The notes below the pieces were generated by a model that saw only the letters and a list, made by a program, of their open reading frames with translations, did not search any database and was not told the DNA's origin. A stretch of DNA of 34,395 nucleotides from an uncultured virus (IMG/VR IMGVR_UViG_3300037358_000205) (taxonomy: Duplodnaviria; Heunggongvirae; Uroviricota; Caudoviricetes): IMG/VR virus record IMGVR_UViG_3300037358_000205; one strand, written 5' to 3'. The position numbers were made by a program, and so were the translations under genes. Position 1 is the first letter of the stretch, and the number at the start of each line of letters is the position of its first letter. Positions 1,025-17,812 of this stretch are shown here, in pieces.

Positions 1025-1053
1025 GGTGGCTTTGTGTGTGTGTGGTTTTTGCT

Positions 1054-1203
1054 TCACGCGTGAAGCAGTTCAGGTGACTCGATTGGCGGTTCGAGGGTGA
1101 TGGGCGCGTACTCCGGGGCTGAGTCCATCGCGACGAGGGCGACGGTGCAGACGGGGCACGTTTCAGTGTTGTGGTCTTCGTGGATAAAGAAGGCTGGGCA
1201 CAT
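1054..1203 (-). CDS. small hypothetical protein (49 aa, CxxC) ending in the palindrome
   Basis: Manual translation MCPAFFIHEDHNTETCPVCTVALVAMDSAPEYAPITLEPPIESPELLHA*; the TGA stop lies inside the palindrome at 1051-1066. Confidence 0.45.
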   Translation of the reverse strand: MCPAFFIHEDHNTETCPVCTVALVAMDSAPEYAPITLEPPIESPELLHA

Positions 1204-1354
1204 TGGGCTTGCTGAGGGGTTGAGGTTTAACTAAAGAGGGAGTCGGGTCAAAAGTGTCATTGTGACAATATGTCAACACGTTTGACACAATGATTTTGTC
1301 GTGTGGCTGCCGCGCTGGTTTGGGGGAGCCAGCGCGGCAGGGCCGCGCGGAAAG

Positions 1355-2008
1355 TTACTTTTTGGGCTGGTCGAGGTCCCGATTCCTGCCGCTGAGAAGT
1401 TCGGCGGCAGTCATGGTCTTGAGGATGTTGCGGGAAGTGAACTCAACGGGGGTGTTGGTTTCATAGCCGTGGATGTGAGCGCTAACCATGTTGGCTTGCT
1501 CGATGACGCCCTGCCACGTTTCGCCCTGGCGGGTGACTTGGACCCAAAAGCGTTCGCCTCCCGCCTTCCGTTCGCCTTCTCCCTTCCAGCCAACGCCAAG
1601 CTGCACGAAGTCGCCCTCGTGGATTTCCTCCAACTCGGCCGCGCCGGGGATGAAGAAGGAGTCCGGATGCTGCCGGTTTCGATCCACGGCATCCATGAGG
1701 GGCATTTGCTCGGCTGCGGTCGGGAGTTTCTCGGGATGCGGGAAGGCCCAAAACTGCGTGCCGTCGAATTGAACATCGTGCCCCACCGGGAGGCGGGCTG
1801 CGGCTTCCACGGTTTCGAAGATGGAATCAAGCGTAGCCTGGAGACGGCAGGCTTCGTCGAGGTCGAGCGTGGACCAATCCTTCTGAATGGCCGTGGCCGC
1901 GTTGTGAGCGAGGAAGGCGGGCACTTTAGTGAGAGGGTAGGGCTTGAGGCCGTAGCGAACTTCCCATGCGGCGGGATCGGGGAATTTGTAGGCGGGTGGA
2001 CGTGGCAT
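1355..2008 (-). CDS. hypothetical protein with C-terminal DUF2314-like domain
   Basis: Likely start MPRPP at 2008. The C-terminal HPDSFFIP...GDFVQL...GERFWVQV...WQGVI pattern resembles DUF2314-type domains. Confidence 0.55.
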   Translation of the reverse strand: MPRPPAYKFPDPAAWEVRYGLKPYPLTKVPAFLAHNAATAIQKDWSTLDLDEACRLQATLDSIFETVEAAARLPVGHDVQFDGTQFWAFPHPEKLPTAAEQMPLMDAVDRNRQHPDSFFIPGAAELEEIHEGDFVQLGVGWKGEGERKAGGERFWVQVTRQGETWQGVIEQANMVSAHIHGYETNTPVEFTSRNILKTMTAAELLSGRNRDLDQPKK

Positions 2009-2141
2009 AGGATGGGATGGTTTTTCGGGGTTCAGTATTTTGGGTGTTTGGCGGAAATAGCAAGGGTGAGGTAGGCGGCGGGGACTCTCTGAGCGCCCCG
2101 CCGCCCGTTCCACACACACGGAAAGTCGATGATCGACGGCG

Positions 2142-2870
2142 TTATGCCGCTTTCTGTTCGCGGAAGGCGGCTACGTCGAGGTACGCCTCGGCGTCGAGAA
2201 GGGCGGCGCGGACGTTGCCCCCGGCTCCGAAGGCGATCTTGTCGGCCATTTCAGCGGGGACGCCGAATTTCCGGACAAGGCCGCTGATTTCCTCCTGCGG
2301 AGGATTGACGATGGGGTATTGCATCCACCGGGTTTGAAACCGCTCCTGCATTTGAAGCAGGTTGGCGTTGCTGGTGCCGATGATGGCGCGGTGGGGCGTG
2401 AGGTCGTCGGCGTAGTCGAGCATGAGGATCTGTGCATCGTTGGTGCAGACATCCATTTCGTTAATGAGCTTGACGCTGTAGCCACCGAAGAGGCTGGACA
2501 TGGGGAGCGAGGCCATCCACTCGCGGACAAGCTCCACGCCGATCTGCTTGCCATTCTTCTTCTCGATCTCCGTCTCGTGCTGGGTGAGGAGCTTGGCGAG
2601 CCAGATTGCCAACTCGCTTTTGCCGACACCGGGAGGGCCGTGGAAGATGACCTTGAAGGGATTGCCCACTGCGAGGAGTTTCTTGACCTTCATGGCGAGG
2701 ATGCCGGCGACTTCGCGGGCGTTGCCGATGAAGTCCTCGGGTTCGGACGGGTGCCAGGTCGAGGGGGAGATGTGAGCGTAGGGCTGGCCGATGGGGATGA
2801 TGGTTCCCCGCGTCCAGTTGGACGAATGGTTTGGATTAGGGTTTTTGGCGGGTTTGGCGGTGCGTTTCAT
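2142..2870 (-). CDS. AAA+ ATPase, clamp-loader clade (DnaX/RFC/RarA-like)
   Basis: FIGN, Walker A GPPGVGKS, IGVELVRE, Walker B-like LINEMD, sensor-1 GTSN, RFQTRW (SRC-like), GNVRAAL. Confidence 0.8.
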   Translation of the reverse strand: MKRTAKPAKNPNPNHSSNWTRGTIIPIGQPYAHISPSTWHPSEPEDFIGNAREVAGILAMKVKKLLAVGNPFKVIFHGPPGVGKSELAIWLAKLLTQHETEIEKKNGKQIGVELVREWMASLPMSSLFGGYSVKLINEMDVCTNDAQILMLDYADDLTPHRAIIGTSNANLLQMQERFQTRWMQYPIVNPPQEEISGLVRKFGVPAEMADKIAFGAGGNVRAALLDAEAYLDVAAFREQKAA

Positions 2871-2991
2871 GTGTGTGGTGTGTGGTTACTGACGGTTGAG
2901 CCACGCGAGCGCGGCGTTGTGGGTGGGAAGCTCGATGTCCTGGGCAATCATATATCTTGCTCACAAGGCTCGGGCGGTTTGAAGTCGTGGG

Positions 2992-3882
2992 ATGAGCAAA
3001 ACGAGGCCGTTAAAATTCTCCGAATCATCACAGATCGCCGATTGGAAGAAGTGGCATGAGCAAACCTACAAATCCCGCATCTGTCGTCGCGTGGCTGCTA
3101 TTTATTCCGAGAATTTGCTGCGCTCTCATTGCTTGGCCATTGTTCCAGGATACGCCTTTATGAGCGGCGTGAACTGGCAGGAATGCATGGACGAGGCGAA
3201 GAGACGGGAAAATATTCAGGACGAAACAGACGAGAAAGTGTTAAGGCTAGCAACAAGGCTGTACCTTCACATTTTCAAAACGCGGACCATAGAGGACGGG
3301 AGCCGCGACCTACGTGCCGCCCAAAGCAATGCCGAAATCACGATGTCTAGGACTCCGATTATGAGACGATCTCTTGTCGGGATGCTTGAGGGGATGATTA
3401 TCCAAGCATGGACCGCGTACGAGGTGATGGCTGTCGATCTGATTAAAAGTCTGCTCAAACGGAGGCGATCTCTCGACACGCGCAAAACTTGGTCTCCAGC
3501 GGAAAAAGAACACTCAGGATTTGGAAGCCGAAGCAAAATCGCCAATTATTACCGATGGACATTCAGGACCGACAATGCGGCCATACTCAAAAATGTTGAT
3601 AGCCCGGCTGTCCACGCACTTGGAATTGCTCGCAATCTACTGGTTCACTCCGCTGGGTGCATCGACAAATCTTTTCAAACTCACAGACTTGGATTTTATG
3701 CTGGCATCCCAAGCTTGTCCCCATTGCTGCCAATTCCAGAACTGAATAAAATCAGGGGAAATTCGATTGGCTATCGTGTCAACTTCGATGGAGATTTTGT
3801 GCGCCTCCTGATTGACAAAGTGACGCCGTTAGGATTTGGGCTGGTAAAGTACGTGGATGAGTGGCTTACTACTCACAAATGA
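2992..3882 (+). CDS. HEPN-like domain protein (putative RNase, toxin or defence effector)
   Basis: IIQAWTAYE followed by ARNLLVH (Rx4H). Visibly lower GC than its neighbours and on the opposite strand. Confidence 0.6.
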   Translation: MSKTRPLKFSESSQIADWKKWHEQTYKSRICRRVAAIYSENLLRSHCLAIVPGYAFMSGVNWQECMDEAKRRENIQDETDEKVLRLATRLYLHIFKTRTIEDGSRDLRAAQSNAEITMSRTPIMRRSLVGMLEGMIIQAWTAYEVMAVDLIKSLLKRRRSLDTRKTWSPAEKEHSGFGSRSKIANYYRWTFRTDNAAILKNVDSPAVHALGIARNLLVHSAGCIDKSFQTHRLGFYAGIPSLSPLLPIPELNKIRGNSIGYRVNFDGDFVRLLIDKVTPLGFGLVKYVDEWLTTHK

Positions 3883-3929
3883 AGGATCAGATTGGGGGGC
3901 TGTAATACTCTCTCACGTCGATGATATTC

Positions 3930-4676
3930 TCACCCCTCAGCCTTCTTCTTAGATGCGTGCGTTTCCCTATACTCAGCTTCCCTCCGAAGTATGGTGGGAT
4001 AGACATTGATGAAATCGAATTTGGTCATTTCGATGAGGAGCATTGCGGTTTGGACGTGGGTGCCTGTCTCCTTGAACGCGGCGGGGTCGAGGCTGATCCA
4101 CTGGGAAGCCAGAGGGCGTAACGCCTTGTCGCGGTGCGGGCCTTCCATGCAGATCGCGGCGAGCTTGCCCTCCGGTTTCAGGAAGGTAAGGGCGTGGAGG
4201 ATGTGCTTGATGTCGCTCCTCATGTGGAAGGGCGGATTCATGATGATGGCGTCGAATAGGCCGGTTTCGGCGGGTTTCATCGTGAGGAAGTCGCGCTGAT
4301 AGAGGGTCTTTTCCCCGTTGCAAGAGTCGTAGTTCTCGTAGAGATGGCGGCAGAGGACGGGTTCCATTTCCACGGCGACGACCTCGGCGGGAGCGATGGG
4401 CATTTGGATCGGGTGCAGGATGGCGTCGATCAAACGGCCAAGGCCGGCGCTGGGCTCGAGCACTCGTGCGCTGGGTTTTAATCCAAGCAGGGCCGCAAGC
4501 TGGGCGGCGATTGCCACGGGTGTCTGGAAGAGTTGATAGGCGCTGACTGCAACGGGCGCGGCGCCGTTCTCGTGACGGCCCGCGAGTCGGTCGAAGCGCG
4601 GTTTCATTTCCTGCATGGCGAAGCCAGCGGCATCGTTTTCCATGCGGAGTTGGTGCAGGCGGTGGAATGCGTTCAT
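3930..4676 (-). CDS. class I SAM-dependent DNA methyltransferase (N6-adenine, NPPF type)
   Basis: QLFQTP, motif I VLEPSAGLG, AVEME, DFL, motif IV IIMNPPF, HILHALTFLKPEG. Start MNAFH at 4676 overlaps the upstream stop. Confidence 0.9.
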   Translation of the reverse strand: MNAFHRLHQLRMENDAAGFAMQEMKPRFDRLAGRHENGAAPVAVSAYQLFQTPVAIAAQLAALLGLKPSARVLEPSAGLGRLIDAILHPIQMPIAPAEVVAVEMEPVLCRHLYENYDSCNGEKTLYQRDFLTMKPAETGLFDAIIMNPPFHMRSDIKHILHALTFLKPEGKLAAICMEGPHRDKALRPLASQWISLDPAAFKETGTHVQTAMLLIEMTKFDFINVYPTILRREAEYRETHASKKKAEG

Positions 4677-4828
4677 TTTGGCTCCCTTCCCACCGGCAGC
4701 ACTTTGACGGCGTGGCATCCCGGCGTTTCGCGGGCGATGCGTTCGGCGGTTTTGAGAGTGAGCGGCCCTTCGCCGTTTTCCTCCCAAATGCCGCCGCGAT
4801 TTTCGATGATCCAGACGATGTATTTCAT
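4673..4828 (-). CDS. small hypothetical protein
   Basis: MKYIVWII...; overlaps the upstream stop and the downstream start (translational coupling). Confidence 0.5.
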   Translation of the reverse strand: MKYIVWIIENRGGIWEENGEGPLTLKTAERIARETPGCHAVKVLPVGREPK

Positions 4829-5016
4829 TATTTGGCGTTCTGTTGTTCGATCCAGTATTTCAAGCCTTCCTTGGCGGCGGCTTGATTGGCTCGCTTGTGT
4901 TGGATTGTCTTGCCGTCCCCGTCGCATTCCTCGTTGCCGTCGATGGTGCCGACGAAGTACCAGGAGATATTTGTGCAGGAGACGTAACCGGAGAAACGGG
5001 ATTTTCTTTTCTTCAT
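4828..5016 (-). CDS. small hypothetical protein
   Basis: MKKRKSRF...; TAATG coupling to the next ORF. Confidence 0.45.
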   Translation of the reverse strand: MKKRKSRFSGYVSCTNISWYFVGTIDGNEECDGDGKTIQHKRANQAAAKEGLKYWIEQQNAK

Positions 5017-5123
5017 AAAGAGTTGGTTGGTAAGCAGCAGGCCCCGATGCCAAGGCCAGAGGTATCGCGCCACTCCTACCTAAAGGGCAGGCGCGTCTGT
5101 GCGGGCATCGGGGCCAAATTGCT

Positions 5124-6722
5124 TCACGCGTGAATCAGTTCAGTCTGAACGGGCAGGGCTTCCCACACTTCGGCGGGGAAGGGCTTCTGCGGCTTGTCGG
5201 TGAGGACGATGACGGCCATCGCCATGTAGCTGGAGCCATAGGTCACGCGGACCTGGGCGACGGCGGGGCCTCGCGCCTTGCGGCGTGCCTCGCCTTCGGA
5301 GGAATACATATTGGATTCGCGCTCGCTGAGTTCGCCGTTGTGGTAGAGGTAGCGCGTCTCGGCTTTCGCGTAGGAGCCTTGAGAGTTGGCGGAATAGGTG
5401 GCCTGCTTGATGCGGCAAACCTCCGTCGCCGTGAACGGTTGCGGGTGTTTCTTCCGCAAGAGTTCATCCTGTACCCGGTTATTGAGCATGGTCTGGAGCC
5501 GCTCGGCATCCTCGTCGGTGGGATTGACGAGGGGGATGGTGGCCTTCTTGGGCGTGGCGTCCTTTTTCTCCTTCACGAGCGCGGCGAGCGCGGCCTTGTC
5601 CGCCTCAGTCGGCGGGCGATAGGCGTTCTGCGGGAGCCGCTCGGTCTTGTACTGCATGAGGGCGTAATCGGTGCCGGGGACGTTCTCGACTTGGTAAGTC
5701 CAGCCGGAAACCTTGGGGACGCGGATATGCACGGAGACAACCCGGCCGGTTTTCACGGACTTGTTGACCTTGTGAATCTGCTTCTCGCCGATGAAGCCTC
5801 CCACTTCGATGTCGAGAGAGGCGGCGCGGCCTCCCTGTGCCTCGATCATCTGATTCTCGTAGGCGAGGCGAAGCTCCATGTGGAGCGTCCACTCATTGTC
5901 GGCCTGCGGCTCGGAGTGATCGGAGAAGAAGAGGTCACATGCCTGCTTGCCGGTGATGGTGTGCTTCTCGGGGCGCGGCTTGATGTCCTCCTCGCTCTTG
6001 AGGTTGACGCCGGAGAGGAGGCTGTAGAGCGAGGATTCCCCATCGCGGCTGAACGCCGTGGGGCCAAGCGGATGCGGGTATTCGGCCCATTGGTTGGTCG
6101 AGCCGGTGAAGTCGAGGGCAATCTCGGTCTGCTTCACGGGGTCTTCGATGGCGCGAATTTTCTCCCATGCCCGGAAAATCCGAAGGCGCTTCTCGATCTC
6201 GGCGCGCTCCTTGCGAAGCTCGGCCTCGATGGTCTTGATGCGGCCCATGCGGACGCCGGGGCTGGAGACGTGGAGGGCGTGGCTGATGACGCCAGCGGTG
6301 CGCCGTTGCCAGTATTCGGCTTTGCCCCATGCGTCGGTGGCGCGGGTGCCGATGCGGTCGTGGCGGGATGCCGCGCGGTTGGCGCGGGCCTGGCTCTGGA
6401 AGCCGTGGACGTGGGGGCCGGCGTCGAAGCGGTCGGCGTGGCCGGCGGCCTCGTCGGTGCGCTTGTCGCGGTACTCGCCGAAACGCTCGGCGCGATCCGC
6501 GGCGCGGTCCTCCGGTCCCATGTCCTCGTCTTCGATGATGTCCGCGTACTTGAGGCAGGTATCGCGGCGGCTGACGGTCCAGGTGGCGACGAAGTCGCAA
6601 TCCTGTTTGGGTGTGGATGTCCAGCCCTGCGCTTTGAGCAGGAGGTATTCATCCCGTGGAACGCGTCCGACATAGAGACGGAGCTTGTTATCTTCGGGGC
6701 TATAGGTGGCGGTGTCTTTCAT
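5124..6722 (-). CDS. DUF3560-like domain protein
   Basis: The N-terminus ATYSPEDNKLRLY...W+P+Q...IEDED...RAERF...AEYW..R...RI..IEAELRK matches my recollection of DUF3560 proteins of plasmid leading regions. The stop lies inside the palindrome (IHA*). Confidence 0.8.
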   Translation of the reverse strand: MKDTATYSPEDNKLRLYVGRVPRDEYLLLKAQGWTSTPKQDCDFVATWTVSRRDTCLKYADIIEDEDMGPEDRAADRAERFGEYRDKRTDEAAGHADRFDAGPHVHGFQSQARANRAASRHDRIGTRATDAWGKAEYWQRRTAGVISHALHVSSPGVRMGRIKTIEAELRKERAEIEKRLRIFRAWEKIRAIEDPVKQTEIALDFTGSTNQWAEYPHPLGPTAFSRDGESSLYSLLSGVNLKSEEDIKPRPEKHTITGKQACDLFFSDHSEPQADNEWTLHMELRLAYENQMIEAQGGRAASLDIEVGGFIGEKQIHKVNKSVKTGRVVSVHIRVPKVSGWTYQVENVPGTDYALMQYKTERLPQNAYRPPTEADKAALAALVKEKKDATPKKATIPLVNPTDEDAERLQTMLNNRVQDELLRKKHPQPFTATEVCRIKQATYSANSQGSYAKAETRYLYHNGELSERESNMYSSEGEARRKARGPAVAQVRVTYGSSYMAMAVIVLTDKPQKPFPAEVWEALPVQTELIHA

Positions 6723-6788
6723 GTGCGTGTGCTGTTGCTGGGTTGGTTGATAGGTTGATTCACGCGTGAAGCAGAAAGTTACTTTCAG

Positions 6789-7403
6789 TCATGACCATTT
6801 GTATTTGGCCCAATCCTTGAACTCGCGTTTGGCGTCCACGAGTTGAATGGGGTATTTGCTGGCGACCTGTTTCAGAAGGATGCCTTCGAAAAAGACATTG
6901 AGGCCGGTAAGTCCAAGCTGGCGGTTCACGAATTGCGCGTGGGTGTAAAGCTCCCATGCCTCCCGCAAGGGATGGCTGGCGACGGCGCGGACGGCGTTCT
7001 CACGCCCGAAATCCTTGTTGGCGAGACAGGCAATGTCCCGCTCCATGATTTCGCGGCGTTCGGTGTAAGTGGCGTCGGGGATCATCACGTCGAGAACGAT
7101 GAGGGAGCCGCGCATGTAACCGTGACGGCGCTCCAAGCCTTCGCAATCCATGTGACGGGGAAACCGCTTTGGCAGGGCATGGAGTAAGTCGAGGGCCTCG
7201 GAAAACTCGGAGGAGATTGAGAGGACTTCGCCGTGCCGGTTGTAGAGGATCTTCTCGTGGCGGTCGGCTTCGACGCGGAAGCCGTTGAGTTTCAATTCCG
7301 CCCTGCGGTCGCCGTAAATGTCGGGATCGAGAAACAGGGGCTTGGTGATTGCGATGTCGAGCGGCCCGCCGTGGATGGGGCGGGCTGGATGGGTGAGGTA
7401 CAT
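6789..7403 (-). CDS. ATP-dependent DNA ligase-like adenylation domain (no OB-fold)
   Basis: Motif I ELKLNGFR, NRHG, motif III MDCEG, IIIa LDVM, IV EGILLK and V WAKYK, followed almost immediately by the stop. Start MYLTHP at 7403. Confidence 0.75.
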   Translation of the reverse strand: MYLTHPARPIHGGPLDIAITKPLFLDPDIYGDRRAELKLNGFRVEADRHEKILYNRHGEVLSISSEFSEALDLLHALPKRFPRHMDCEGLERRHGYMRGSLIVLDVMIPDATYTERREIMERDIACLANKDFGRENAVRAVASHPLREAWELYTHAQFVNRQLGLTGLNVFFEGILLKQVASKYPIQLVDAKREFKDWAKYKWS

Positions 7404-7558
7404 AGACGGTGTGCGGCTTGTTGGGCTTCGGTGAAGGTGGCTTTTGCCATGATTGCGCGGTGAAATTCCTGCCAGTATTTTCCACGGCCATAGAGGAGTG
7501 GCGTCTTGCGCCACTCCTCTTCGGACATTTCCCACGGATGCAGGGTGTGGACTTCCAT
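7292..7558 (-). CDS. small hypothetical protein (overlaps the ligase start)
   Basis: MEVHTLHPWEM... is coupled by TAATG to the upstream gene; its 3' part overlaps the ligase ORF by about 110 nt. Confidence 0.35.
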   Translation of the reverse strand: MEVHTLHPWEMSEEEWRKTPLLYGRGKYWQEFHRAIMAKATFTEAQQAAHRLCTSPIQPAPSTAGRSTSQSPSPCFSIPTFTATAGRN

Positions 7559-8292
7559 TAGTGCTTGCGGAAGCTGGCCTGAATGGGGATGACGCGGTTG
7601 AGGGCGAGGTTGGTAGCCAGGTCGAACCGCTGCCACCGGGTCGCCTTGAAGTGCGGGGTGGGGGCGATGATCGACTTGCGGGCGAGGCAGTTGAGGCAAC
7701 CATGCTCCTGAAAGAGCGCGACAAGGCCCGCCGAAAGTGCGGGGCGCACGCTATCGGGAACGTCAGCCATTTTGATGGTGAGGCTGGTGGCATCGCGGAA
7801 GTTCTCGGTGAAGAGAGGCACGTCGCCATTGAGGAGGGTGAGGAGTTCCCCGGCTGCCGTCTTTGGGATTTCCTTGTACTTGCCGCCCGAATCGCCGCAA
7901 AGGGTGATGAGGCTCTCGGAGACGACGCCGGCGGCGAGGATGCCGCTGGGGACTTCGGCCAAGCCGATGTTCTGCTTGATGTACTGATCGGTGACGACAG
8001 GCGCGAGGAGGCCGGAGAGGACTTCCATGCTGCCCTTGAGAGCGGCGGCTTCTATCTTCTGCCGGTTCAGCTCGTCGATCTGCTTGCGCTGGGGGTCGGT
8101 GAGGATGGCGCGAGGGTAGGATTTGCCCCCGGTTTTCTTCGCGGCGGATTCCCCGATCGCGGCGAGCGGGTCATCGTTGCCGAATGGGTTGACGGTGGGT
8201 GCAGGGCCGTCTTTTGGAACGACCGTGAACGTGGGGCCGGGAGCGACGGGTTGAAGGTCGGCGGCGGGTTTCTTGAGTGCGGCTTTAGCCAT
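7558..8292 (-). CDS. hypothetical protein
   Basis: 244-aa ORF with a CA-rich leader and codon usage like its neighbours. Confidence 0.75.
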   Translation of the reverse strand: MAKAALKKPAADLQPVAPGPTFTVVPKDGPAPTVNPFGNDDPLAAIGESAAKKTGGKSYPRAILTDPQRKQIDELNRQKIEAAALKGSMEVLSGLLAPVVTDQYIKQNIGLAEVPSGILAAGVVSESLITLCGDSGGKYKEIPKTAAGELLTLLNGDVPLFTENFRDATSLTIKMADVPDSVRPALSAGLVALFQEHGCLNCLARKSIIAPTPHFKATRWQRFDLATNLALNRVIPIQASFRKH

Positions 8293-8687
8293 TGTGTGTA
8301 TTTGTTTTGTTGGTTGTTGGTTTGGTTACTGCGGAGAATCTTCCCGCTCCACGACGATCCATTTTTTATCCTACTGGGACTCAGGGTGGGCGTCTGTCAG
8401 ACCATGCCAGGGCCAATCGACGCGGAGCGGGGGAAAGAAGACTGCCCGCCCGGCAGAGGTTCGCGGATACCGTGTGCTCCCGTCTTCGCCTTTTCCCGTT
8501 GGTTCTTCAAGGTGAAGAAAAGGAAGGCGGGGCCGTTGGTCGTTTGAACTTGCAGGGGCGGGTTGCCTCTATCTCTCAGGGTATTTCATGGGAGCGATAT
8601 TCAACCGATGGCGCCTCGGTGTCGTCGCTAACAGCCATTATGAGAGAGCAGGCAAAGTTGCTTCACGCGTGAAGCGTAAGCGGAAAG

Positions 8688-9397: not shown

Positions 9398-9406
9398 GGT
9401 TGAGTT

Positions 9407-10045: not shown

Positions 10046-10106
10046 GGTGTGTGTGGTGTGTTGGTTTTGCTTCACGCGTGAAGCGGTTTTTCTGCGTTGA
10101 TGGGGT

Positions 10107-10505
10107 TCATGGTGTTATGAGTTGGACGGCGATGATTCCCGATGAACGGGAAACCATCATGTTATCGGTGCAAGCGTAGATGGGGCAATCGGCCCAGGCG
10201 GGATGCGAGACGCGGAAGGCTTTGGCGACCTCGACGGCCTTCTGGAAGGTGGGCGCGGGGTCGGGCGTCGGGGTATTTCCATGCTCCCTGATTTCCTGCC
10301 CCTTGCGGTTGCGAGTGGGGAGGGTGAGGGAGAAGCGATTGGCGTTGTAACGCTGGGAGCCTTTCACTTCCCACGGGACGGTCTCGGTGGGTTTGATGAA
10401 GGGGAAGATACTGCTTCCCCCGTGGATAAAGATACCGAAGTGCGCAGGATCGTGGCGGCAATCGTTGCGCTTGTTTTTGAATCCGAAGCGATGTTCGTAG
10501 GGCAT
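10107..10505 (-). CDS. hypothetical protein
   Basis: 132 aa, bounded by the palindromes at 10542 and 10069; CA-rich leader. Confidence 0.65.
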   Translation of the reverse strand: MPYEHRFGFKNKRNDCRHDPAHFGIFIHGGSSIFPFIKPTETVPWEVKGSQRYNANRFSLTLPTRNRKGQEIREHGNTPTPDPAPTFQKAVEVAKAFRVSHPAWADCPIYACTDNMMVSRSSGIIAVQLITP

Positions 10506-10544
10506 TGGTGTGTGTGTGGGTTGGTTGAAAAGTTACTTTTTGCT

Positions 10545-10784
10545 TCACGCGTGAAGCGTGATGGGATTGACGCCGGATAGTTTGGTTTCGCGGGCGAGCA
10601 TTTTTGTCACGAACTCGTCGTATTCGGACTGAGTAAGTTCTTCCCTGCCGGGAAAGCCGTAGGCAAACCTGGAGCCATTCGGCTCGGCGCGGAAGAAAAC
10701 GGCGCGACCGCTGGAAAGGTCGATAGGGGCGTTTGCGTCTAATGCCTTATTGAAGGCTTCGACGGCTTTGGCGTGGTTGGTCAT
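10545..10784 (-). CDS. small hypothetical protein
   Basis: 79 aa; the ATG lies just after the TAAGGCA-N6-CGTATA motif and the stop is in the palindrome (LHA*). Confidence 0.65.
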   Translation of the reverse strand: MTNHAKAVEAFNKALDANAPIDLSSGRAVFFRAEPNGSRFAYGFPGREELTQSEYDEFVTKMLARETKLSGVNPITLHA

Positions 10785-10818
10785 ATCTCTATACGGCGGG
10801 CTGCCTTATGGTTCCGGG

Positions 10819-11439
10819 TTAGTAATTCGCCGCCTCCGCGAATTGGTCGTGGACGCGGCATTCCTTGAACTCCTGCCACTCGGGGCGGCGGATTCGCCGG
10901 CCTTGAAAGTGGGAGCGGGATTTATCCTCGCCTTGCTCCATGTAGCTTTCCGTGGCGGCGAGCTGGTCCAGGGGCGAGAAGTGAGCGCCGGATCGGCGGA
11001 TGCTCCCGTCGCAATCGCGGCCTCCATTGGACCACTCATTGAGGACGATGAGGGGCGCGGTATCGGAAAAACGATCATCGCGCTGATAGGTGTAAAGGTT
11101 GGACTCGAAGGAATACCCCTCGTCATCCGGCGCGGAAAACCCGAAGGCGAGGGATTGGCAGAAGCGCAGGGTGAGCTTCACCCAACTATTGTGATAGAAC
11201 GTCCAGAAACGGGCGTTTGGCGGCTCGTTGCTGATGCGGGTGAAGCCGACAGAATCGACGACATACCGCTCGTTGTAATGGAGGCCAAGGATGTTGAGTG
11301 CGCTGTGGAAATCGGAAGCGATACGCTGGCAAGCGGCTTCCTGTGGATTGTGGCGGGCGAGCTTTTCCAACTCGTCGGCGGTTTGCTGGCGCAACGGGAA
11401 CGGTGCGCCGCGAACGATCTCTTTGTGTATTTCGATCAT
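10819..11439 (-). CDS. hypothetical protein
   Basis: 206 aa, CA-rich leader, RDCDG motif. Confidence 0.7.
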   Translation of the reverse strand: MIEIHKEIVRGAPFPLRQQTADELEKLARHNPQEAACQRIASDFHSALNILGLHYNERYVVDSVGFTRISNEPPNARFWTFYHNSWVKLTLRFCQSLAFGFSAPDDEGYSFESNLYTYQRDDRFSDTAPLIVLNEWSNGGRDCDGSIRRSGAHFSPLDQLAATESYMEQGEDKSRSHFQGRRIRRPEWQEFKECRVHDQFAEAANY

Positions 11440-11619
11440 TGGTGTGTGTGGTGTGGTGTTTGGTTTCTGGCGTTACCGGGCGTCCCCGGTGTTGCCGGAA
11501 GAACCTCCGGCGAGTGGCTTCAACAGTTTGGTTTTTATCGACGCATCCCTGTAAACTGTTCAGGTCCCATACTCATAAGTAGGGTGCGCCGTTTCATGCT
11601 TCACGCGTGAAGCGGAAAG

Positions 11620-11688
11620 TGGCGGCGGTCGGGGATTTCAACCCCACCGGGTTTATTGCCCGGTTTCAGCCGTGTTGCGGCTACCGCC
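11620..11688 (-). ncRNA. tRNA-like RNA (non-canonical cloverleaf, GCCA end)
   Basis: GGCGGT|AGCCG-CAACA-CGGCT|GAA|ACCGGG-CAATAAA-CCCGG|TGGGG-TTGAAAT-CCCCG|ACCGCC|GCCA. Confidence 0.55.
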
Positions 11689-11693
11689 TTTTT

Positions 11694-12611
11694 TTACCGG
11701 CCCGGCATCGTGACGGAATTGAGCGCGGCAAGTGCCTTGGCGAGCGCGGGATTTTTGGGCGCTGCCTTGGGCTTCGGGAAAGGAATGACTTTGGCCGCAA
11801 GCTGCTTCTCGATCATGGAGCCGACATTCGCGCCGATTTCTTCGCGGGGCTTTTCATGCCAGCCTTGCTTGGCGAGATTGAGCGCCCATGCCCCGGCATG
11901 AGGGCGGATGTCCGCCACGGTTTGCGAGTGCAGCCCACCTTCGTCATAGGCGTTGCGGTGGATTCCAATGCTGTCCTGGGTGAATTCATACGGGAGCCAT
12001 GCGTCAAGCTCTATGACGGCGAAGAGAATCTCGGGATCGCGCACGAGCTTATCCCCCGGCAGGAAGTAGGTATGCGAGACGGACACGGTTGGAACGCGGG
12101 CGGGGCAGCGGTGCAGCGGCAGGACTTCGATGGAAAGCGACAGGTAGGATTTGTGCTCGTACTTGCGGGAAAAGAGGGCGCGGCCTTTGAGCGCCTCCTC
12201 GAAGGCGACGGCATCCCCACGGCTTGCGATGACGCGCCGGAGATTCTTCGGGAAGGCGCGAGTGAGAAGGGGATCGAGCGTGGAGGTAATGCGGGTGGTT
12301 TCACCCTTGCCCCCTGTCTGCTGGATATGCCAGAAGGCATCGAACGCGGCCCGCCAGTTCTTAGCGCCGGGATGGGCGAGGGCGTATTGCAGGAAGTTAT
12401 CCCTGATTTCTTCGGCCCGCGCGGGTTCGGCATCTGCCGGGTTATTGGTGAGCATGGCAAACATGCCCTGCGGGAAGGCCGCAATGATGCCGGGCAAGGT
12501 GGAAACCTTGGGGACGCGCACGGCGGGCGCTTTCTTGCTCCGGCGCGTTTTGGGCGCGGGAGCTTCGACGGTGGCGATTGCTTCGCCGGTAAGGACATTG
12601 AGACGAGCCAT
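11694..12611 (-). CDS. DUF6908-like domain protein
   Basis: The C-terminal half YLSLSIE...VSVSHTY..GD..RDPEILF...WLPYEFTQDSIG resembles DUF6908/DUF1249. Confidence 0.6.
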   Translation of the reverse strand: MARLNVLTGEAIATVEAPAPKTRRSKKAPAVRVPKVSTLPGIIAAFPQGMFAMLTNNPADAEPARAEEIRDNFLQYALAHPGAKNWRAAFDAFWHIQQTGGKGETTRITSTLDPLLTRAFPKNLRRVIASRGDAVAFEEALKGRALFSRKYEHKSYLSLSIEVLPLHRCPARVPTVSVSHTYFLPGDKLVRDPEILFAVIELDAWLPYEFTQDSIGIHRNAYDEGGLHSQTVADIRPHAGAWALNLAKQGWHEKPREEIGANVGSMIEKQLAAKVIPFPKPKAAPKNPALAKALAALNSVTMPGR

Positions 12612-12656
12612 AAAAAGTTACTTTTCGGTTTGCGGTTGCTGCTTCACGCGTGAAGC

Positions 12657-12692
12657 AAAAAGGGCGCGGCGGGATGGACCGTCGCGCCCTTT
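12657..12692 (-). terminator. GC-rich hairpin followed by a U tract (probable intrinsic terminator, possibly bidirectional)
   Basis: AAAGGGCGCGGCGG-GATGGA-CCGTCGCGCCCTTT; on the minus strand it ends in TTTTT and abuts the palindrome at 12641. Confidence 0.55.
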
Positions 12693-12718
12693 GGGTGGGT
12701 TTGTGGCGATGCGGATTT

Positions 12719-13129
12719 CTAGGCCGCTTTCTGGAGGGTGAGGCTGATGCGCTCGGCCTGGCCGGCGAAGTACCGCTTGAGATAGACGCGGCCCACGATG
12801 GGGGCCTGGCCTTCGATCTCGACCTCATCGAACACGCGGCAACCCTTCGTGTCCTTGAGGAAGGCGAAGGTGCGGCAGTTCGCGGAGGGGGGCTGGCTGC
12901 CGGTCTTGTCCACGTGGACGCCGATGCTGGGTGCGGACCCGGCAAAGAAGCGTTTCACGTAGAGCGTGCCCATGCTCGGGGGAGTGCCTTCGACTTCGGC
13001 CTCCTCGTAGCGGACGGCGCCGGGAGTTTCCTTGCCGCGCGTCAAGAGGATGACGTTGGCGAGGGCGGTTGCGACGATGGCGGTGGGCGCGATGCGCTTC
13101 GCCGTGGATTTGCTGGATGCTTTCGGCAT
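12719..13129 (-). CDS. hypothetical protein with an internal two-fold repeat
   Basis: KETPGAVRYEEAEVEG..SMGTLYVKRFFAG versus KDTKGCRVFDEVEIEG..IVGRVYLKRYFAG; start MPKAS at 13129. Confidence 0.7.
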   Translation of the reverse strand: MPKASSKSTAKRIAPTAIVATALANVILLTRGKETPGAVRYEEAEVEGTPPSMGTLYVKRFFAGSAPSIGVHVDKTGSQPPSANCRTFAFLKDTKGCRVFDEVEIEGQAPIVGRVYLKRYFAGQAERISLTLQKAA

Positions 13130-13201
13130 TTGATTCCTTTCGGTTTTGTGTGGTTTTTGCTTCACGCGTGAAGCGGCGGCTGTGGTGTTTGCAGCGAAAA
13201 T

Positions 13202-13276
13202 TGGGGCGCGGCTGGGACTCGAACCCAGACGATTACGGGCGAAAGCGCGCAATCGCAGCACGTCCTGCTCCGCACC
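13202..13276 (-). ncRNA. tRNA-like RNA (canonical T-arm, CCA end, no anticodon loop)
   Basis: GGTGCGG|AGCA-GGACG-TGCT|GCGATTGCG-CGCTTTCGCC-CGTAATCGT|CTGGG-TTCGAGT-CCCAG|CCGCGCC|CCA. Confidence 0.65.
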
Positions 13277-13511
13277 TGAAAATATGCAGGTTCGAAGTGC
13301 TTCACGCGTGAAGCGGTAAGCACTTCAAATCTGCACACTTGGTAGTGTGCATCCGTTGTCTCGCTCGCAACGGCGCGGACCTTGTTTGCTCGTCTATGGT
13401 CAAAGACGTGGGCGCTTTGTTGCGCGGTTGGTAGTTACCGTTTAAGTCTCATAACTCCCTTTCTTGGTTTGGTTGAGGGTTAGTCTCTTCCCTCCTATAC
13501 GCTGGACTGCC

Positions 13512-13769
13512 TTACGGTTTTAAGGTGGAAACCAGATACAGGAGGGCCACGACTCCCATCCAGAGGGGGATGGCTAGTATGACAAAAACATGCTCGGGGT
13601 GATTTTGGCCGTAACGCTTCACGCGTGAAGCAATGCCGCGGCCGTACCGGAAGATTCGACGGCGATTTCTCCGGTAATCGCCCCGGCGCATCGTGCGATT
13701 CGAGGGGAGATGATGCAGCCATTCGGCTACGTCTCGGGCGTCATTGCGCCGGATTCCGCAGCCTCGCAT
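13512..13769 (-). CDS. small putative membrane protein
   Basis: 85 aa with a C-terminal hydrophobic segment; reads through the palindrome at 13616. Confidence 0.4.
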   Translation of the reverse strand: MRGCGIRRNDARDVAEWLHHLPSNRTMRRGDYRRNRRRIFRYGRGIASRVKRYGQNHPEHVFVILAIPLWMGVVALLYLVSTLKP

Positions 13770-14135
13770 TTAGTAGCTTGCGCGGTGATGGCTACGCTTG
13801 CCGCTGCTGCTGCCGCTGCCGGCGTTGCTGGCGTTGCTGGCGTGATGGCTGCGACCACCACTGCTGCCGTGGCTCCATGCCGCGTGGCTGGTGGTGCCGG
13901 TGGCCAGGATGAAGGCGAGCGCGATGCACGCGGCGGCGAGGAAGCGCGTTCCGAACCCCGGATGCAAACCGAGGATGACGAACATGGGGCGCTTGCGTGC
14001 GGACAGCTTGAGCGCCCTGCGCTGCTCATCGGGCGCGATGCAGCGCGTTTCGGTGTGCAGGGTGAAGTGGCGCGGCGATTTGCGGCCTGTGGCTGTGAGC
14101 ATTGGCACGGGCGTTGTGACTTTGGCGACGATCAT
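13770..14135 (-). CDS. hypothetical protein with a hydrophobic segment and a Ser/His/Gly-rich tail
   Basis: Start MIVAK at 14135 follows the palindrome; FLAAACIALAFILA is followed by SHGSSGGRSHH. Confidence 0.5.
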   Translation of the reverse strand: MIVAKVTTPVPMLTATGRKSPRHFTLHTETRCIAPDEQRRALKLSARKRPMFVILGLHPGFGTRFLAAACIALAFILATGTTSHAAWSHGSSGGRSHHASNASNAGSGSSSGKRSHHRASY

Positions 14136-14800
14136 TTGCGTGTGTCCTTTCAGGGATGTTGTGTTGTGGTTTACTGCTTCACGCGTGAAGCAATTCGCCT
14201 CGCGCGTTGCAACCCGCTCGCGTCTTGCGTGTGGGTCGCGCTTCACGCGTGAAGCACTCGCAGCGTGTCGCACAGCGTTTCCGCTGTGCTTCACGCGTGA
14301 AGCACTCCGCACGATGAAATCCAAAAAGTTGCTTTTTTTGGCGCACCCCCTTCCTCCGGTAATGGAGGCAAACCATGATCCGCCGCTCGATTCTTTCCCT
14401 CGCCCTTTATACGCTGTGCTGGGTTATGGCTCCCACTGAGAGCACCCTCCTTGGGTTTTTCGAAGCGCCCTTTAAGGGGGGTTTTTTCGGGAGAAAAAAA
14501 GCCGGAAATTTCCCGCCGAAAAAAATTCGGCTCCTATGGGCGCGACCTATACGGGCGCGAAAAAAAATAAAAAATAGAACGGCAAACCGGGCGGATTGCT
14601 TGCCCGGTTTGCCTCTCTTGCTTATCGGCTGATGCGAAGTGCAAGCAATGTGATTGCGGATAGACCGCGACGCATTGCCCGCCTTGCAAGTGCCTTCCTT
14701 GCTTTCGCGCTCATGCTGTCCCCCTTTCATTGTTACCGAATAGACCGCTTGCTAAGTTCGCCCCCTCGCTCCCATAGGAGCAAAGGGGCGTACCAAGCAA

Positions 14801-14822
14801 GGCGGGGGGAATGCCCCCCGCC
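14801..14822 (-). terminator. hairpin downstream of the 14838 gene
   Basis: GGCGGGGGG-AATG-CCCCCCGCC, 15 nt past the stop; weak U tract. Confidence 0.4.
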
Positions 14823-14837
14823 GCTTGTCCTAATCGA

Positions 14838-15575
14838 CTAGGCCGCAACCTTTGCGGCCTTGCCCGGTTTGCCCGCCTTGAGCTTCACAATCTGCCCCAA
14901 CCGCTTGAAAGCAAGGGCAAGCGCCTTGCTTTGCTCCTCGCTGAAATCCGCCTCCCCGATACGGACACCCGCCGCTTGCAAGGTGGCAAGGGCAATTTCC
15001 GCCGGAGACAATTCCTCCCCTTCCTCGCCCTCGCCTTCCCCGCCTTCCCCGCCTTCACCGTCCCCCGCCTCTTGCTTGGCCGGTTTCAATTGGTCGCGAA
15101 GCGTTTCGAGCCTATCCTGCCCGCCCTTTGGCTTGGTACGAATGACAGCCGCCATGCACTCGAAATGCGCAGCCGCTTCAACGTCCCCGAACGGTTTCCC
15201 GTTGACCTCCCGCCCCGCCTCTTGCGCTTCGGGAATCAGGTTAATGATTGCGCTGGCAACGGCCAGCCATCGGGCAGGGATCAAATCGAGTTGAGTCTCC
15301 GAATAGAACCCCGAACCCTCCCCGACACGCGCGCAGCAATTCGCCACGCTCCACGCTTGCGCGGGAATGTCCTTGCGGTCTGCTTTGATGGATTCGGAAA
15401 CGTATTTCTGGACACTCTTCGTGTCCCTTGGCGCTTTGCTGGCAAGCGCCGAAATGAGTTTCCCGAGCCGATGGCAAAGGCCGCCGCTATCGGCCAGCAA
15501 TTGACGCCCCCGCTTGCTCAAATCCGCCACGCTCATTTCCTTGAACGTAGCGAGATTTTCGATTAGTGCTTTCAT
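14838..15575 (-). CDS. hypothetical protein
   Basis: Start MKALIEN at 15575 after a CA-rich leader with AAGGA; contains an acidic GEGGEG linker. Confidence 0.75.
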   Translation of the reverse strand: MKALIENLATFKEMSVADLSKRGRQLLADSGGLCHRLGKLISALASKAPRDTKSVQKYVSESIKADRKDIPAQAWSVANCCARVGEGSGFYSETQLDLIPARWLAVASAIINLIPEAQEAGREVNGKPFGDVEAAAHFECMAAVIRTKPKGGQDRLETLRDQLKPAKQEAGDGEGGEGGEGEGEEGEELSPAEIALATLQAAGVRIGEADFSEEQSKALALAFKRLGQIVKLKAGKPGKAAKVAA

Positions 15576-15833
15576 ACTTAGTTTTCCTTTGTGTGTGTGT
15601 GTTTTGTTTTGTGTAGCTTGGCGGTTTGCCTTGCTTACATTCTTTATACGCCCGATTGCCTTACGGTATTTTTTCCGCCCGGTTTGCTTCACCCGTGAAG
15701 CACTTTCACCCGGTTTGATTCCTTCCGCTTTGCTTCACCCGTGAAGCACTTTCCCGCCCGGTTTGCTACCGTCTAACCGATTCCCTTTCTCCCCTGTCTC
15801 TTATACGCTGGATTGCCTTACCGAATAACAATG

Positions 15834-15866
15834 AAAAAGGCCGCTAGGGTTGAACCTAGCGGCCTT
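15834..15866 (-). terminator. intrinsic terminator
   Basis: AAGGCCGCTAGG-6nt-CCTAGCGGCCTT ending in a U tract on the minus strand, 17 nt after the stop of the 15884 gene. Confidence 0.7.
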
Positions 15867-15883
15867 CCGATTGCTTCTCTTGC

Positions 15884-17329
15884 TTACTTACTCAACAAGC
15901 GCGAAGCGTAAGCATTGACGCGAAACGCCCTTGCCCATGCCGTACCACTGGCAACGCTTGGCAACGTGCTAGGCAATTGCAGCGTATGACCCGCCCGCAA
16001 GCGCATTGACTTAGCACGAACACACGCAACGGATGGGATCAGCGTTGAGTATTCCGTTTCAACTAATAGGCGAGAAACCCGCTTTGCAGGGTGTGTTTCT
16101 GTCTCCTCTTGCAAGAGCCTCTCTTGATTGCATACCCGCCGCAGACTCGCCCGCCGCTTGGCTACCCTGTCCGCTACGCCCTCCCGACTAATAGGCCGCA
16201 CCCCTTGCCCCTCTTGGACGCCTACACGGTCCAAGAGCCTTTCCCATGCGTCCTCATTAGCTAACGCTTGGAACGCTTTCGGCCCTACGTTATTCCGACT
16301 AATTAGGCGGATGTATTCCAGCGTACTTTGCAGGGTGACGACATCCGCCGCTTGAATGATGATTTCCCCGCCTATCACTTCTTTCTGTAGCCGCTCGATT
16401 GCTTGGCCTAGTGGCGTTTCCGATGGCGAGAGCTTGCGAGGTTTCCACGCTTTCCCTCCCTTGCTCTTGCGTTGTCTTTTTGTCATTGCCTGCCCCTCGC
16501 CCTCGCCCACTTCAAACCCTAGTTTGAGCAATGCTAATGCACCGTTCCCCCGCTTGGATTCATAGACCGCATGAAGCAATGACAGCTTGCGCTCTAGCGT
16601 TGCTTTCCATTCCTTCCCGCTCTCATTCTCCCAATAGACCGCAAGGCGTAAACGGTCATCCTGATAACTCGCCCGCAGTCTCAGCAATGCCGCCGCATTC
16701 ATCCCATTCCCCTTGCCGCTATCCCATAGCAGGTTCCCAACGCACGAACGGCCCGCCGCATAAGCGCGAAGCAATTGGAAGGATGCTTTATCGCTCTTGC
16801 TCTCACCCGGTTTGCCCTCGCCCGCTATCCTATCGTATTGGACGAACTCGCTAACCTCTTCGGCTCCTTTGCCGTAGTGGTAAGACCTAGCCTTGCTCTT
16901 GGCCCTGTCCATTGCAGCCCGATACATAGCGCACCCTTTGGCCGTCCAAATGGTTTGCCTTGAACCATTGCGCCGAGGGAAGAAACCAACGCGGGAATAA
17001 ACGGCCCCTAATTCGTGCCGATATATCGCCTTCATTTCTTCCACCTCGCTAGGTTCCAACGGAATGCCGCTGGATTCCTCGATTTTCCTAGCGCATCGGC
17101 TCGCACCCTCGCCCGCCGCTTTCTCTAGCCGCTTGGCATCTATCGCAGCGTATGACGCTACAGGGTGAAGCAGACTTGCGGCCTTGATTGGCCGAAGCGT
17201 GCGAAGCACGAACAGAACCGCAACCAAACGCGCGAAGCGCGTTTGCCAATTACTACCTAGACGCGCGAAGCGCCTATTTTGCACCCTTGCCCTTGCCCCT
17301 GCCCATTGTTTACTTGCTTTAGCTTTCAT
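15884..17329 (-). CDS. basic hypothetical protein (first gene of the leftward arm)
   Basis: 481 aa, CA-rich leader, followed by a terminator. Confidence 0.7.
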   Translation of the reverse strand: MKAKASKQWAGARARVQNRRFARLGSNWQTRFARLVAVLFVLRTLRPIKAASLLHPVASYAAIDAKRLEKAAGEGASRCARKIEESSGIPLEPSEVEEMKAIYRHELGAVYSRVGFFPRRNGSRQTIWTAKGCAMYRAAMDRAKSKARSYHYGKGAEEVSEFVQYDRIAGEGKPGESKSDKASFQLLRAYAAGRSCVGNLLWDSGKGNGMNAAALLRLRASYQDDRLRLAVYWENESGKEWKATLERKLSLLHAVYESKRGNGALALLKLGFEVGEGEGQAMTKRQRKSKGGKAWKPRKLSPSETPLGQAIERLQKEVIGGEIIIQAADVVTLQSTLEYIRLISRNNVGPKAFQALANEDAWERLLDRVGVQEGQGVRPISREGVADRVAKRRASLRRVCNQERLLQEETETHPAKRVSRLLVETEYSTLIPSVACVRAKSMRLRAGHTLQLPSTLPSVASGTAWARAFRVNAYASRLLSK

Positions 17330-17812
17330 TTGACTTTGTGTGTGTTTGTTTGCTTATGCCGCTTGCGCTTGCCAGTCACTTGCCGACAACGCGCAGGAAG
17401 CACTTTGCCCCTTTATATTCGCCCTTATGTCAAGAGCCGAAAGAGTGGGAAAATGCGCCCGCCCTTTTTAGGATTGGCCCGCTATCGCTTCACGCGTGAA
17501 GCAAGGCCGCAAAATGCGTTTGCCCCTGTATTCATGCGGGAATCACCCCGCGCGAAAGGGTAACTTCCTCTAGGTAGTTTCCTCGCAACCACCCGCCAAG
17601 GGGGATAGGTTACAAGGGGCGGGAAGTGCCACTTCAAACCACCCCAGGCTGTCGAGATCGGCGCGCCTCGCGGGAGCTATTGGCTATCGGCCCCGGATCA
17701 TCGAAAAGTAACTTCCTCGCCCGTGGAGCCGGGTAGGGTCGCCGGGCATGGGGGAGGCCCGCTGGGGCCACACAGCGACCGTGAGGAAGGCGCGAGGCGG
17801 GGGCAGGGGGAT

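Follow-up and report, generated by a model that had tools for sequence, protein, structure and literature searches.

In cluster A mycobacteriophages more than 20 stoperators, 13-nt sites of a repressor of the L5 gp71 type, lie in promoters and short intergenic spaces, and in L5 they are proposed to stop initiation as well as elongation, with the integrated element kept silent (PMC9283540). The present analysis concerns a comparable set of sites, the copies of a 16-nt palindrome, GCTTCACGCGTGAAGC, in a DNA of 34,395 nucleotides from an uncultured virus of the Caudoviricetes (IMG/VR record IMGVR_UViG_3300037358_000205), which at its full length is called the window throughout. In layout the window corresponds to an integrative element that encodes a primase-helicase of its own, and the palindrome, whose extended form is YGCTTCACGCGTGAAGCR, is a cis element under strong selection and specific to this one family of integrative elements. 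The explanation that we favour, tentatively and with a probability of about 0.4, is that the copies are operator- or stoperator-like sites of a dimeric regulator, encoded by the element, that silences the leftward arm, with the modular exchange of genes that is shown to occur at the same sites as a side effect.

Three further described systems invite comparison. The plasmid RK2 (IncP) has 12 OB sites. These operators of KorB and the OA operators of KorA are identical palindromes, some of them far from promoters, where the protein loads and spreads (PMC11790492). The PeSLs of T4-type phages are intergenic, contain a stem-loop, lie in a variable region and act as points of homologous exchange for small gene units; they combine a sigma-70 consensus promoter with a terminating stem-loop and are loosely conserved in sequence (PMC2839356, PMC4122927). 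In IncN plasmids the CUP elements are repeated upstream of the establishment genes of one arm and are bound by a plasmid-encoded repressor, ArdK, that also regulates itself (PMC6289460).

How does the locus compare with these systems? With the stoperators it shares many near-identical short sites, here 17, in promoters and in the gaps between co-directional genes. The L5 sites, however, are 13 nt long, asymmetric, oriented with respect to transcription and bound by a monomeric two-domain repressor (PMC9283540), whereas the site in the window is a perfect palindrome of 16–18 bp, which implies a dimer, is restricted to one arm, and is accompanied by no detected homologue of that repressor. Stoperators come closest in distribution and in presumed action, but the window is not a member of that system. 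With KorB and KorA it has in common short identical palindromes in many copies across a mobile element and, beside some of the sites, a second palindromic operator, for which the counterpart here would be the motif AAAGTWACTTT, 2–21 nt from five of the copies. Among the open reading frames (ORFs) of the window, the left end of which is cut, no protein of the ParB/KorB family was found (0 ParB-family matches among the 39 and 20 proteins submitted), and the site is unrelated to OB. The half-site TTCAC/GTGAA resembles, as a lead only, the parS half-site, but has two extra central bases. A looser parallel is CUP/ArdK, which likewise has repeated upstream elements across one arm of a mobile element; the ArdK site, though, is a 13-nt consensus whose copies are 69–85% alike (PMC6289460), nothing in the window matches ArdK, and the elements and their hosts are unrelated.

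A search of the whole window at up to two mismatches finds 17 sites between 1051 and 17502, compared with a mean of 0.02 in 100 dinucleotide shuffles; 13 are exact and four, at 5121, 6757, 15686 and 15732, carry one mismatch. Allowing three mismatches adds no copy (0.30 expected by chance), and because neither the two- nor the three-mismatch search extends the set, the family is all-or-none. The remaining part of the window, 17503–34395, contains no copy. An earlier note on this DNA, made from the letters alone, had counted 17 copies at these positions and placed them in the leftward arm only, and the mismatch search bears this out. The copies lie in promoter-like regions and in short intergenic gaps of co-directional genes (Table 1). 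Seven of them precede start codons, all on the minus strand, by a measured 23–40 nt with an A/C-rich leader in between, in agreement with the spacing and the CA-rich leaders described in the note. In addition, the palindrome supplies the TGA stop of the three ORFs at 1054, 5124 and 10545, which on translation end in ...LLHA*, ...LIHA* and ...TLHA*, the common HA* ending being as the note had it.

Is the palindrome a property of this element or of its surroundings? Megablast of positions 1–17600 against phage and plasmid collections gave no match. Scanning metagenomes for two copies 25–55 nt apart returned 10 loci, and all ten belong to the element family of the window: they align to it over 9.4–23.8 kb, with main alignments at 76–98% DNA identity, and each holds 3–12 copies at places matching those in the window. 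Confinement to one arm is conserved too, because the three relatives that reach into the primase side (L134, L135 and L138) are free of copies in that part. The exact palindrome occurs in at least 120 stretches of 596 Gb of genomes, compared with a chance level that we roughly estimate at about 140, and the 80 stretches listed hold one site each, on separate contigs; it occurs once each in two of 401 genomes from the phylum of G001, and as two singletons in viral contigs, among which no homologue of the primase-helicase was found. The repeat is real and, within the reach of these searches, neither a chance repeat nor a host-wide one. A REP-like repeat spread through the host, which like a hairpin promoter would put a short hairpin-forming palindrome upstream of genes, is hard to reconcile with single sites per contig among the matches listed, with one copy in each of two genomes of the phylum, with paired copies that in all ten metagenome loci fall into the element family, and with the copy-free right arms of the window and of the three relatives just named. 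The companion idea, promoters of the N4 type read by an RNA polymerase of the element, was one of three models in the earlier note and is not supported: no RNA polymerase homologue was found among the window ORFs scanned, no initiation motif stands at a fixed distance from the palindrome, and L134 lacks the 1120-amino-acid (1120-aa) orphan ORF (22798–26160) and yet has 12 copies. We regard both ideas as extremely improbable.

Within the family, the 16 columns of the palindrome are 97–100% identical over 52 site-by-relative pairs while the flanks are 69–92% identical, and conservation falls immediately outside the 16 nt. The 12 copies of L134 are all exact, even though its DNA aligns to the window mostly at 67–80% identity. 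The sequence of the palindrome is under constraint. Moreover, in 74 distinct instances a pyrimidine (T or C) invariably stands at position −1 and a purine (A or G) at position +16, the flank pair C..A being present at six of the 17 window sites and C..G at none, and no covariation indicative of pairing was seen in the flanks. A preference that is mirror-symmetric and independent on the two sides is what would be expected of two equivalent half-sites on duplex DNA, not of a longer stem.

How could such sites act? We infer that a protein binds the palindrome and brings about silencing there. A symmetric dimeric regulator of the element would recognise it as double-stranded DNA. At the three sites in the leader at 14176–14303, at the two variants between the promoter-like motifs of the gene for a 245-aa protein and at the single site upstream of the gene for a 481-aa protein, the regulator would control initiation. 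At the cistron boundaries, where copies lie 23–40 nt before starts or over stops, bound regulator would block read-through in the manner of a stoperator; alternatively, the boundary copies could, like KorB operators, be loading sites from which a silencing protein covers the arm. In this way an arm of at least 17 kb would be kept silent while the element is integrated. The identical repeats of 16–21 nt are, as the relatives show, also joints for homologous exchange, at which units of one gene or one RNA are gained, lost or replaced.

Several observations support the operator reading: 1) the sequence is invariant, the flank preference symmetric and the sites are clustered in control regions; 2) there is no fixed −35/−10 arrangement and the RNA hairpin is weak; 3) three palindromes overlap the stops of translated ORFs; 4) AAAGTWACTTT accompanies some copies at close range; 5) a protein with similarity to XRE regulators is the most conserved of the 11 that could be matched in L134. 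The triple site of the control region is found in nine of ten relatives, those whose locus covers the region, with spacings of 48–51 and 60–65 nt, and two copies are visible in L130, the locus of which is cut off there. The variant with the centre CCCG/CGGG is retained in L131, L135, L136 and L138. Of the models in the earlier note an operator regulon is the one that fits best, given the invariance, the symmetric flanks and the control regions. If true, the reading means that in an uncultivated lineage of such elements a long accessory block, including two methyltransferases, the DUF3560 and DUF6908 genes and many orphan genes, is under the control of many copies of one perfect operator that also mark points of exchange. 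It would join silencing from dispersed sites, as in stoperators and KorB, with the repeat-mediated modular shuffling of PeSLs, so far separate, and with the palindrome as a probe, cargo units and the regulator could easily be traced in metagenomes. No new category would be opened by such a mechanism.

The best candidate for the binding protein, judged from its conservation, is the XRE-like protein. It is 88% identical in L134, the most diverged relative, and the changes in its predicted helix-turn-helix (HTH) are all conservative. Next in line is the orphan 245-aa protein, 69% identical in L134 and preceded by the two variant palindromes. Its AlphaFold model (predicted local distance difference test, pLDDT, 78.6) is confident and all-helical with an acidic linker. 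It belongs to a small orphan family, with 18 close homologues and, in a library clustered at 50% identity, 32 representatives. Neither Pfam nor NCBIfam assigned it to a family, and 30 of the 32 representatives, when scanned, gave no convincing family either. Foldseek against the PDB returned no match at E <= 0.001 and a profile search against PDB sequences none at all; in a wide VIA structure search designed helical proteins scored best (Z 6.1), and the comparison with the ParB-type Spo0J chain 1vz0 (Z 5.0 over 102 aligned residues) is within the noise for helical proteins. In the Atlas the protein falls into unnamed viral clusters only, and it was found neither in the viral contigs nor in the 401 genomes of the phylum of G001. 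The 481-aa protein has four homologues, no match in the Atlas and a model that is unusable (pLDDT 41.8). That the regulator is of an undescribed family, be it the 245-aa protein or a partner of the XRE-like protein, and silences the arm from many dispersed palindromes co-opted as joints for the exchange of single genes and small RNAs between elements, so that one sequence is signal for silencing and for shuffling alike, we hold to be decidedly unlikely.

Could the primase-helicase be the partner instead? All copies lie on one side of an origin-like region next to its gene, so that one might think of sites for binding or priming by this enzyme, and the ten GGAAGC/GCTTCC iterons there (17814–18102), together with a 16-nt palindrome, GCTTCCAGATGGAAGC, have the same outer GCTTC/GAAGC as the motif. 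Also in the region are an AT-rich stretch and, directly past the primase-helicase gene, an inverted repeat of 18 nt. The iterons, though, change with the enzyme: the window and L135, with a primase 99% identical, have GGAAGC, in L138 (84%) it is replaced by GCTACC, and from L134 (55%) it is absent, whereas the palindrome is unchanged in all three. Since the iterons follow the divergence of the primase and the palindrome does not, the primase-helicase is not the partner of the palindrome, for which a well-conserved factor should be sought, and a replication function has next to no probability.

Some results weigh against a silencing operator. The spacings within the control region vary, which argues against strictly phased cooperative binding. 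No binder of the palindrome was identified, no ParB, KorB or repressor family having been found in the ORFs scanned beyond the weak XRE and HTH matches, and the 245-aa protein lacks a significant match in structure or sequence. The XRE gene is covered by L134 alone among the relatives, and the region upstream of it contains no copy of the palindrome. Furthermore, the palindrome is the same on both strands, so that a role at the level of RNA is compatible with it as well.

Such a role could be that of a 6-bp hairpin in 5' leaders or between cistrons, read by an RNA-binding protein or an endoribonuclease, or, in a variant, that of two neighbouring copies pairing as a 16-bp duplex, whereby the transcript would be cut into stable units or the A/C-rich starts insulated. 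In the early region of T7, RNase III sites cut a long transcript. The seven copies shortly upstream of starts, with A/C-rich leaders next to them, suit this explanation, as do the copies flanking the tRNA-like unit and a probable non-coding unit and the pairing that is predicted between neighbouring copies. A symmetric double change in L134, GATTCACGCGTGAATC, would keep the base pair, but it fits two equivalent DNA half-sites equally. As RNA, however, the palindrome forms a weak hairpin of −6.9 kcal/mol, a value matched by 13 of 200 shuffles, and the variant at 5121 folds no better than shuffles; the sequence is invariant without covariation, the C..A flanks at six of the 17 sites mean that extension of the stem is not selected, terminating ribosomes would cover three of the copies, and RNA-binding or nuclease families were not found in the ORFs scanned. 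Metatranscriptome run X1 contains short contigs of low depth over parts of 9369–12926 and 17247–17494, one of which spans the copy at 11598; they give no starts, ends or strand and may stem from DNA carry-over, and no conclusion is drawn from them. Taken together, an RNA-level element is an unlikely explanation, though second in rank. As to the tRNA-like element itself (13205–13262, minus strand, in the unit 13175–13298), an acceptor stem and a perfect T-arm can be made out in it, and its match to the mascRNA/menRNA model, with 23 bits and E 0.03, stays under the gathering score; ARAGORN finds no tRNA in the window, and Rfam at gathering score no match.

Signals for transcription are present in the arm, apart from the palindrome. 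A 24-nt promoter-like motif (..TAAGGCA..GCG-TATAAAG) occurs on the minus strand in six places and is probably a promoter type of the element or of its host; its copies follow terminators and precede genes or non-coding units, and sigma-70 spacing is not matched. A long leftward unit seems to start near 14400, after the hairpin at 14581..14613, with three palindromes in its leader; the terminator scan listed that hairpin as terminator-like on the plus strand only. Beside the palindrome there are no conserved −35/−10 boxes at constant spacing, and scanning for sigma-70 promoters gave three promoter-like sites compared with 6.0 in shuffles, none of them at a copy. The palindrome was also considered as a −35 box or as the 16-nt spacer between two boxes, for which no hexamers fit, and as an intrinsic terminator, for which a U-run after the hairpin is missing on the transcribed strand. 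By inspection it bears no resemblance to the boxes of known global host regulators (LexA, CRP, Fur).

It could be imagined that the copies have no dedicated binder and are composite signals in the manner of PeSLs, serving the host polymerase as attenuator or promoter part and otherwise mainly as shuffling joints. As in the PeSLs, the repeats are exchange points between close relatives, located in a variable region, upstream of orphan genes; here they are intergenic, in the most variable arm and directly upstream of such genes, exchange at the copies is demonstrated, and one module of a 55-nt leader, motif and palindrome stands before different genes in the window and in L138. Moreover, an unrelated viral contig with the DUF3560–methyltransferase pair (L128) has repeated promoter-like and hairpin modules of its own. 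In contrast to PeSLs, the repeat in the window has no promoter consensus and no U-run, forms a weak hairpin and is invariant over 16 nt. The promoter-like motif is a separate entity at a variable distance from the palindrome, no −35/−10 pair accompanies it at a fixed one, and 100% identity, taken over 17 sites and across relatives that are 76% identical, is rare for host signals. We therefore rate this explanation as rather improbable.

The exchange itself can be followed in the relatives, the identity of the window to which is a mosaic. From L132 the gene unit 10107–10505 is missing, and the gap lies exactly between a pair of 21-nt direct repeats, each of which includes the palindrome. In L135 identity is 100% as far as the copy at 12641 and about 88% from the next bases; the copy at 14288 marks a fall from about 96% to about 77% in L131 and L136. 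L131 and L132 have the tRNA-like unit, bounded by the copies at 13159 and 13299, at 100% identity, in L133, L135 and L138 it is replaced, the ends being no more than about 15 nt from the copies, and a 79-aa gene beside the copy at 10542 is missing in L134 and replaced in L138, where the leader, motif and palindrome of this copy precede a different gene. The copies thus serve as exchange joints, but not exclusively. The switch of L135 from 79% to 97% identity falls at about 17366, away from the copy at 17487; several of the variable segments are intragenic, several that are replaced or missing meet a copy at one end or at neither, and the ends of a 9.7-kb block missing from L134 have none. Likelihood segmentation of seven pairwise alignments gave 55 change-points, 11 of which lie within 25 nt of a copy compared with a random mean of 4.3 (P about 0.003; about 2.5-fold), numbers to be read in view of the shared ancestry of the relatives, which makes the events non-independent, and of the position of the palindromes at gene borders, which are frequent sites of mosaic joints in any case. 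The count within 50 nt is 14 compared with 6.9, the median distance is 161 nt, and 44 of the 55 lie more than 25 nt away. The check proposed in the earlier note, whether breakpoints among relatives fall on the palindrome, has a mixed outcome: these 11 lie close to a copy, and the other 44 do not.

Does this exchange require a recombination system of its own? Integron attC sites are imperfect palindromes of 57–141 nt with conserved core sites and unpaired bases. They are recombined as folded single strands by IntI, in an array beside attI and Pc. The earlier note had proposed an integron-like cassette array, and the arm does consist of co-directional small units parted by a palindromic repeat, with a content that varies among relatives: a single-gene unit missing exactly between two copies, a tRNA-like unit bounded by copies and variably present, and change-points enriched close to the copies are what dedicated sites would leave behind. 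This much of the proposal stands, that units abutting the palindrome are gained, lost or replaced. The rest is poorly supported, as 44 of 55 change-points are elsewhere and several segments have at most one end at a copy. The site is a perfect 16–18 bp with unconserved flanks and a symmetric centre, from which inversions would be expected to be as frequent as deletions, and no inversion between copies was seen in the ten relatives; the only recombinase found in the window is, by family match, a generic tyrosine integrase some 16 kb away. The 21-nt perfect direct repeats in the L132 event suffice for homologous exchange, and since homologous exchange between identical short repeats accounts for the data, a dedicated recombination system is not needed and is very improbable.

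Table 1. Palindrome copies, genes and other signals in the window (positions count from its first letter)
Feature	Coordinates	Strand	Remark
Palindrome, exact	1051..1066		26 nt upstream of ATG 1024 (N6-methyltransferase gene, minus strand); gives TGA stop to small ORF 1054-1203
Palindrome, one mismatch (position 15)	5121..5136		Gives TGA stop to DUF3560 gene 5124-6722(-)
Palindrome, one mismatch (position 2)	6757..6772		34 nt upstream of DUF3560 ATG 6722; motif AAAGTTACTTT 3 nt beyond
Palindrome, exact	8660..8675		Directly past stop of gene 8688-8981(-); motif AAAGTTACTTT 8 nt off
Palindrome, exact	10069..10084		23 nt upstream of ATG 10045; left joint of the unit absent from L132
Palindrome, exact	10542..10557		36 nt upstream of ATG 10505; right joint of the unit absent from L132; gives stop to 79-aa ORF 10545-10784
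Palindrome, exact	11598..11613		Adjoining 74 nt (about 11620-11694) missing from L134
Palindrome, exact	12641..12656		29 nt upstream of ATG 12611 (DUF6908 gene)
Hairpin and T-run	just upstream of palindrome 12641		Terminator-like by eye; not listed by the terminator scan
Palindrome, exact	13159..13174		29 nt upstream of ATG 13129; left border of 140-nt tRNA-like unit
Palindrome, exact	13299..13314		Right border of tRNA-like unit; copy and unit replaced in L133, L135, L138
Palindrome, exact	13616..13631		Past stop of gene 13770-14135(-); about 100 nt upstream of promoter-like motif
Control region, three exact palindromes (14176, 14240, 14288)	14176..14303		Between promoter-like motif 14404-14427 and ATG 14135; 40 nt upstream of the latter
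Two variant palindromes (centre CCCG/CGGG)	15686..15747		Between two promoter-like motifs, upstream of 245-aa gene
Palindrome, exact, last copy	17487..17502		Some 55 nt upstream of the 481-aa gene's promoter-like motif; adjoins origin-like region
24-nt promoter-like motif	17433-17410, 15821-15798, 15664-15641, 14427-14404, 13515-13492, 10809-10786	-	
Hairpin then T-run	14581..14613	-	Read as intrinsic terminator closing 245-aa gene unit
Strong intrinsic terminator	15835..15868	-	Past 481-aa gene
AAAGTWACTTT, exact	1351, 6775, 8684, 10529, 12614, 19446, 22478, 25730, 27257, 31898		
AAAGTWACTTT, one mismatch	14325, 17705, 28409		
Origin-like region	17814-18102 and about 18129-18191		Adjoins primase-helicase gene
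Methyltransferases, two	3930-4787 and 2-1024		The latter truncated by the window edge
AAA ATPase	2142-2870		
DUF3560	5124-6722	-	
DUF6908	11694-12611		
Orphan all-helical 245-aa protein	14838..15575	-	Two variant palindromes ahead of gene
Primase-helicase, 1222 aa	18199-21867		
Small HTH_17-like protein	21868-22161		
Glycosyltransferase and sulfotransferase block	27-30.6 kb		Rightward
XRE-like HTH protein, 155 aa	31909..32376	-	Weak XRE/HTH family match
Tyrosine integrase (PF00589, phrog_1)	33157-34395		About 16 kb from nearest palindrome; only recombinase found in window

From position 1 to 22161 nearly all genes run leftward. The earlier note had spoken of an early-gene arm, a label for which nothing in the window speaks: it has an integrase, an XRE-like and a small HTH protein and a primase-helicase, and family scans of its ORFs found no virion genes. 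PADLOC gave methyltransferase matches and a weak P-loop match and otherwise no defence system. Verrucomicrobiota are weakly indicated as host, by one named DUF3560 homologue and one row of the Atlas. The DUF3560 protein was found at seven loci in viral contigs (L123–L129), none of which has a repeated palindrome; they were considered as relatives of the element and set aside, their common content with it being the DUF3560 and methyltransferase pair only. This pair (window 3930–6722) is 35–58% and 38–60% identical in amino acid sequence in the seven contigs. L128 and L126 contain intergenic repeats of their own, which in L128 take the form of a box, ..CCGCCGTATC.., followed by a hairpin, GCCCGAAATTCGGGC, ahead of many small genes.

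The second palindromic motif, AAAGTWACTTT, has 10 exact copies in the window compared with 0.17 expected and none in 212 kb of unrelated loci. It is present in both arms and partly intragenic, and the copies at 1351 and 8684 give gene stops of the form ...KK*. The five sites near the main palindrome include the one-mismatch site at 14325. In the relatives the intergenic copies are retained, and the intragenic one at 19446 is not retained in L134 and L138.

CA-repeat or A/C-rich leaders precede starts at 1025–1050, 8285–8314, 15582–15611, 17329–17358 and elsewhere, and in the leaders read by eye a clear Shine-Dalgarno sequence is mostly absent. Because genes without a palindrome have such leaders too, they seem to be a style of translation start of the host or the element.

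The 9.7-kb block missing from L134 (22218–31898) is rightward and looks like cargo: it encodes the 1120-aa orphan protein, three glycosyltransferases and a sulfotransferase, as well as a repeat-rich ORF with 18-nt tandem repeats at 26292–26393, and one of its ends is the AAAGTWACTTT site at 31898. Within the palindrome arm, the only sizeable rightward ORF, 2992–3882, has no family match, and at 3001–4000 the G+C content falls to 0.49 from about 0.6 around it, a region that may be a recent insertion.

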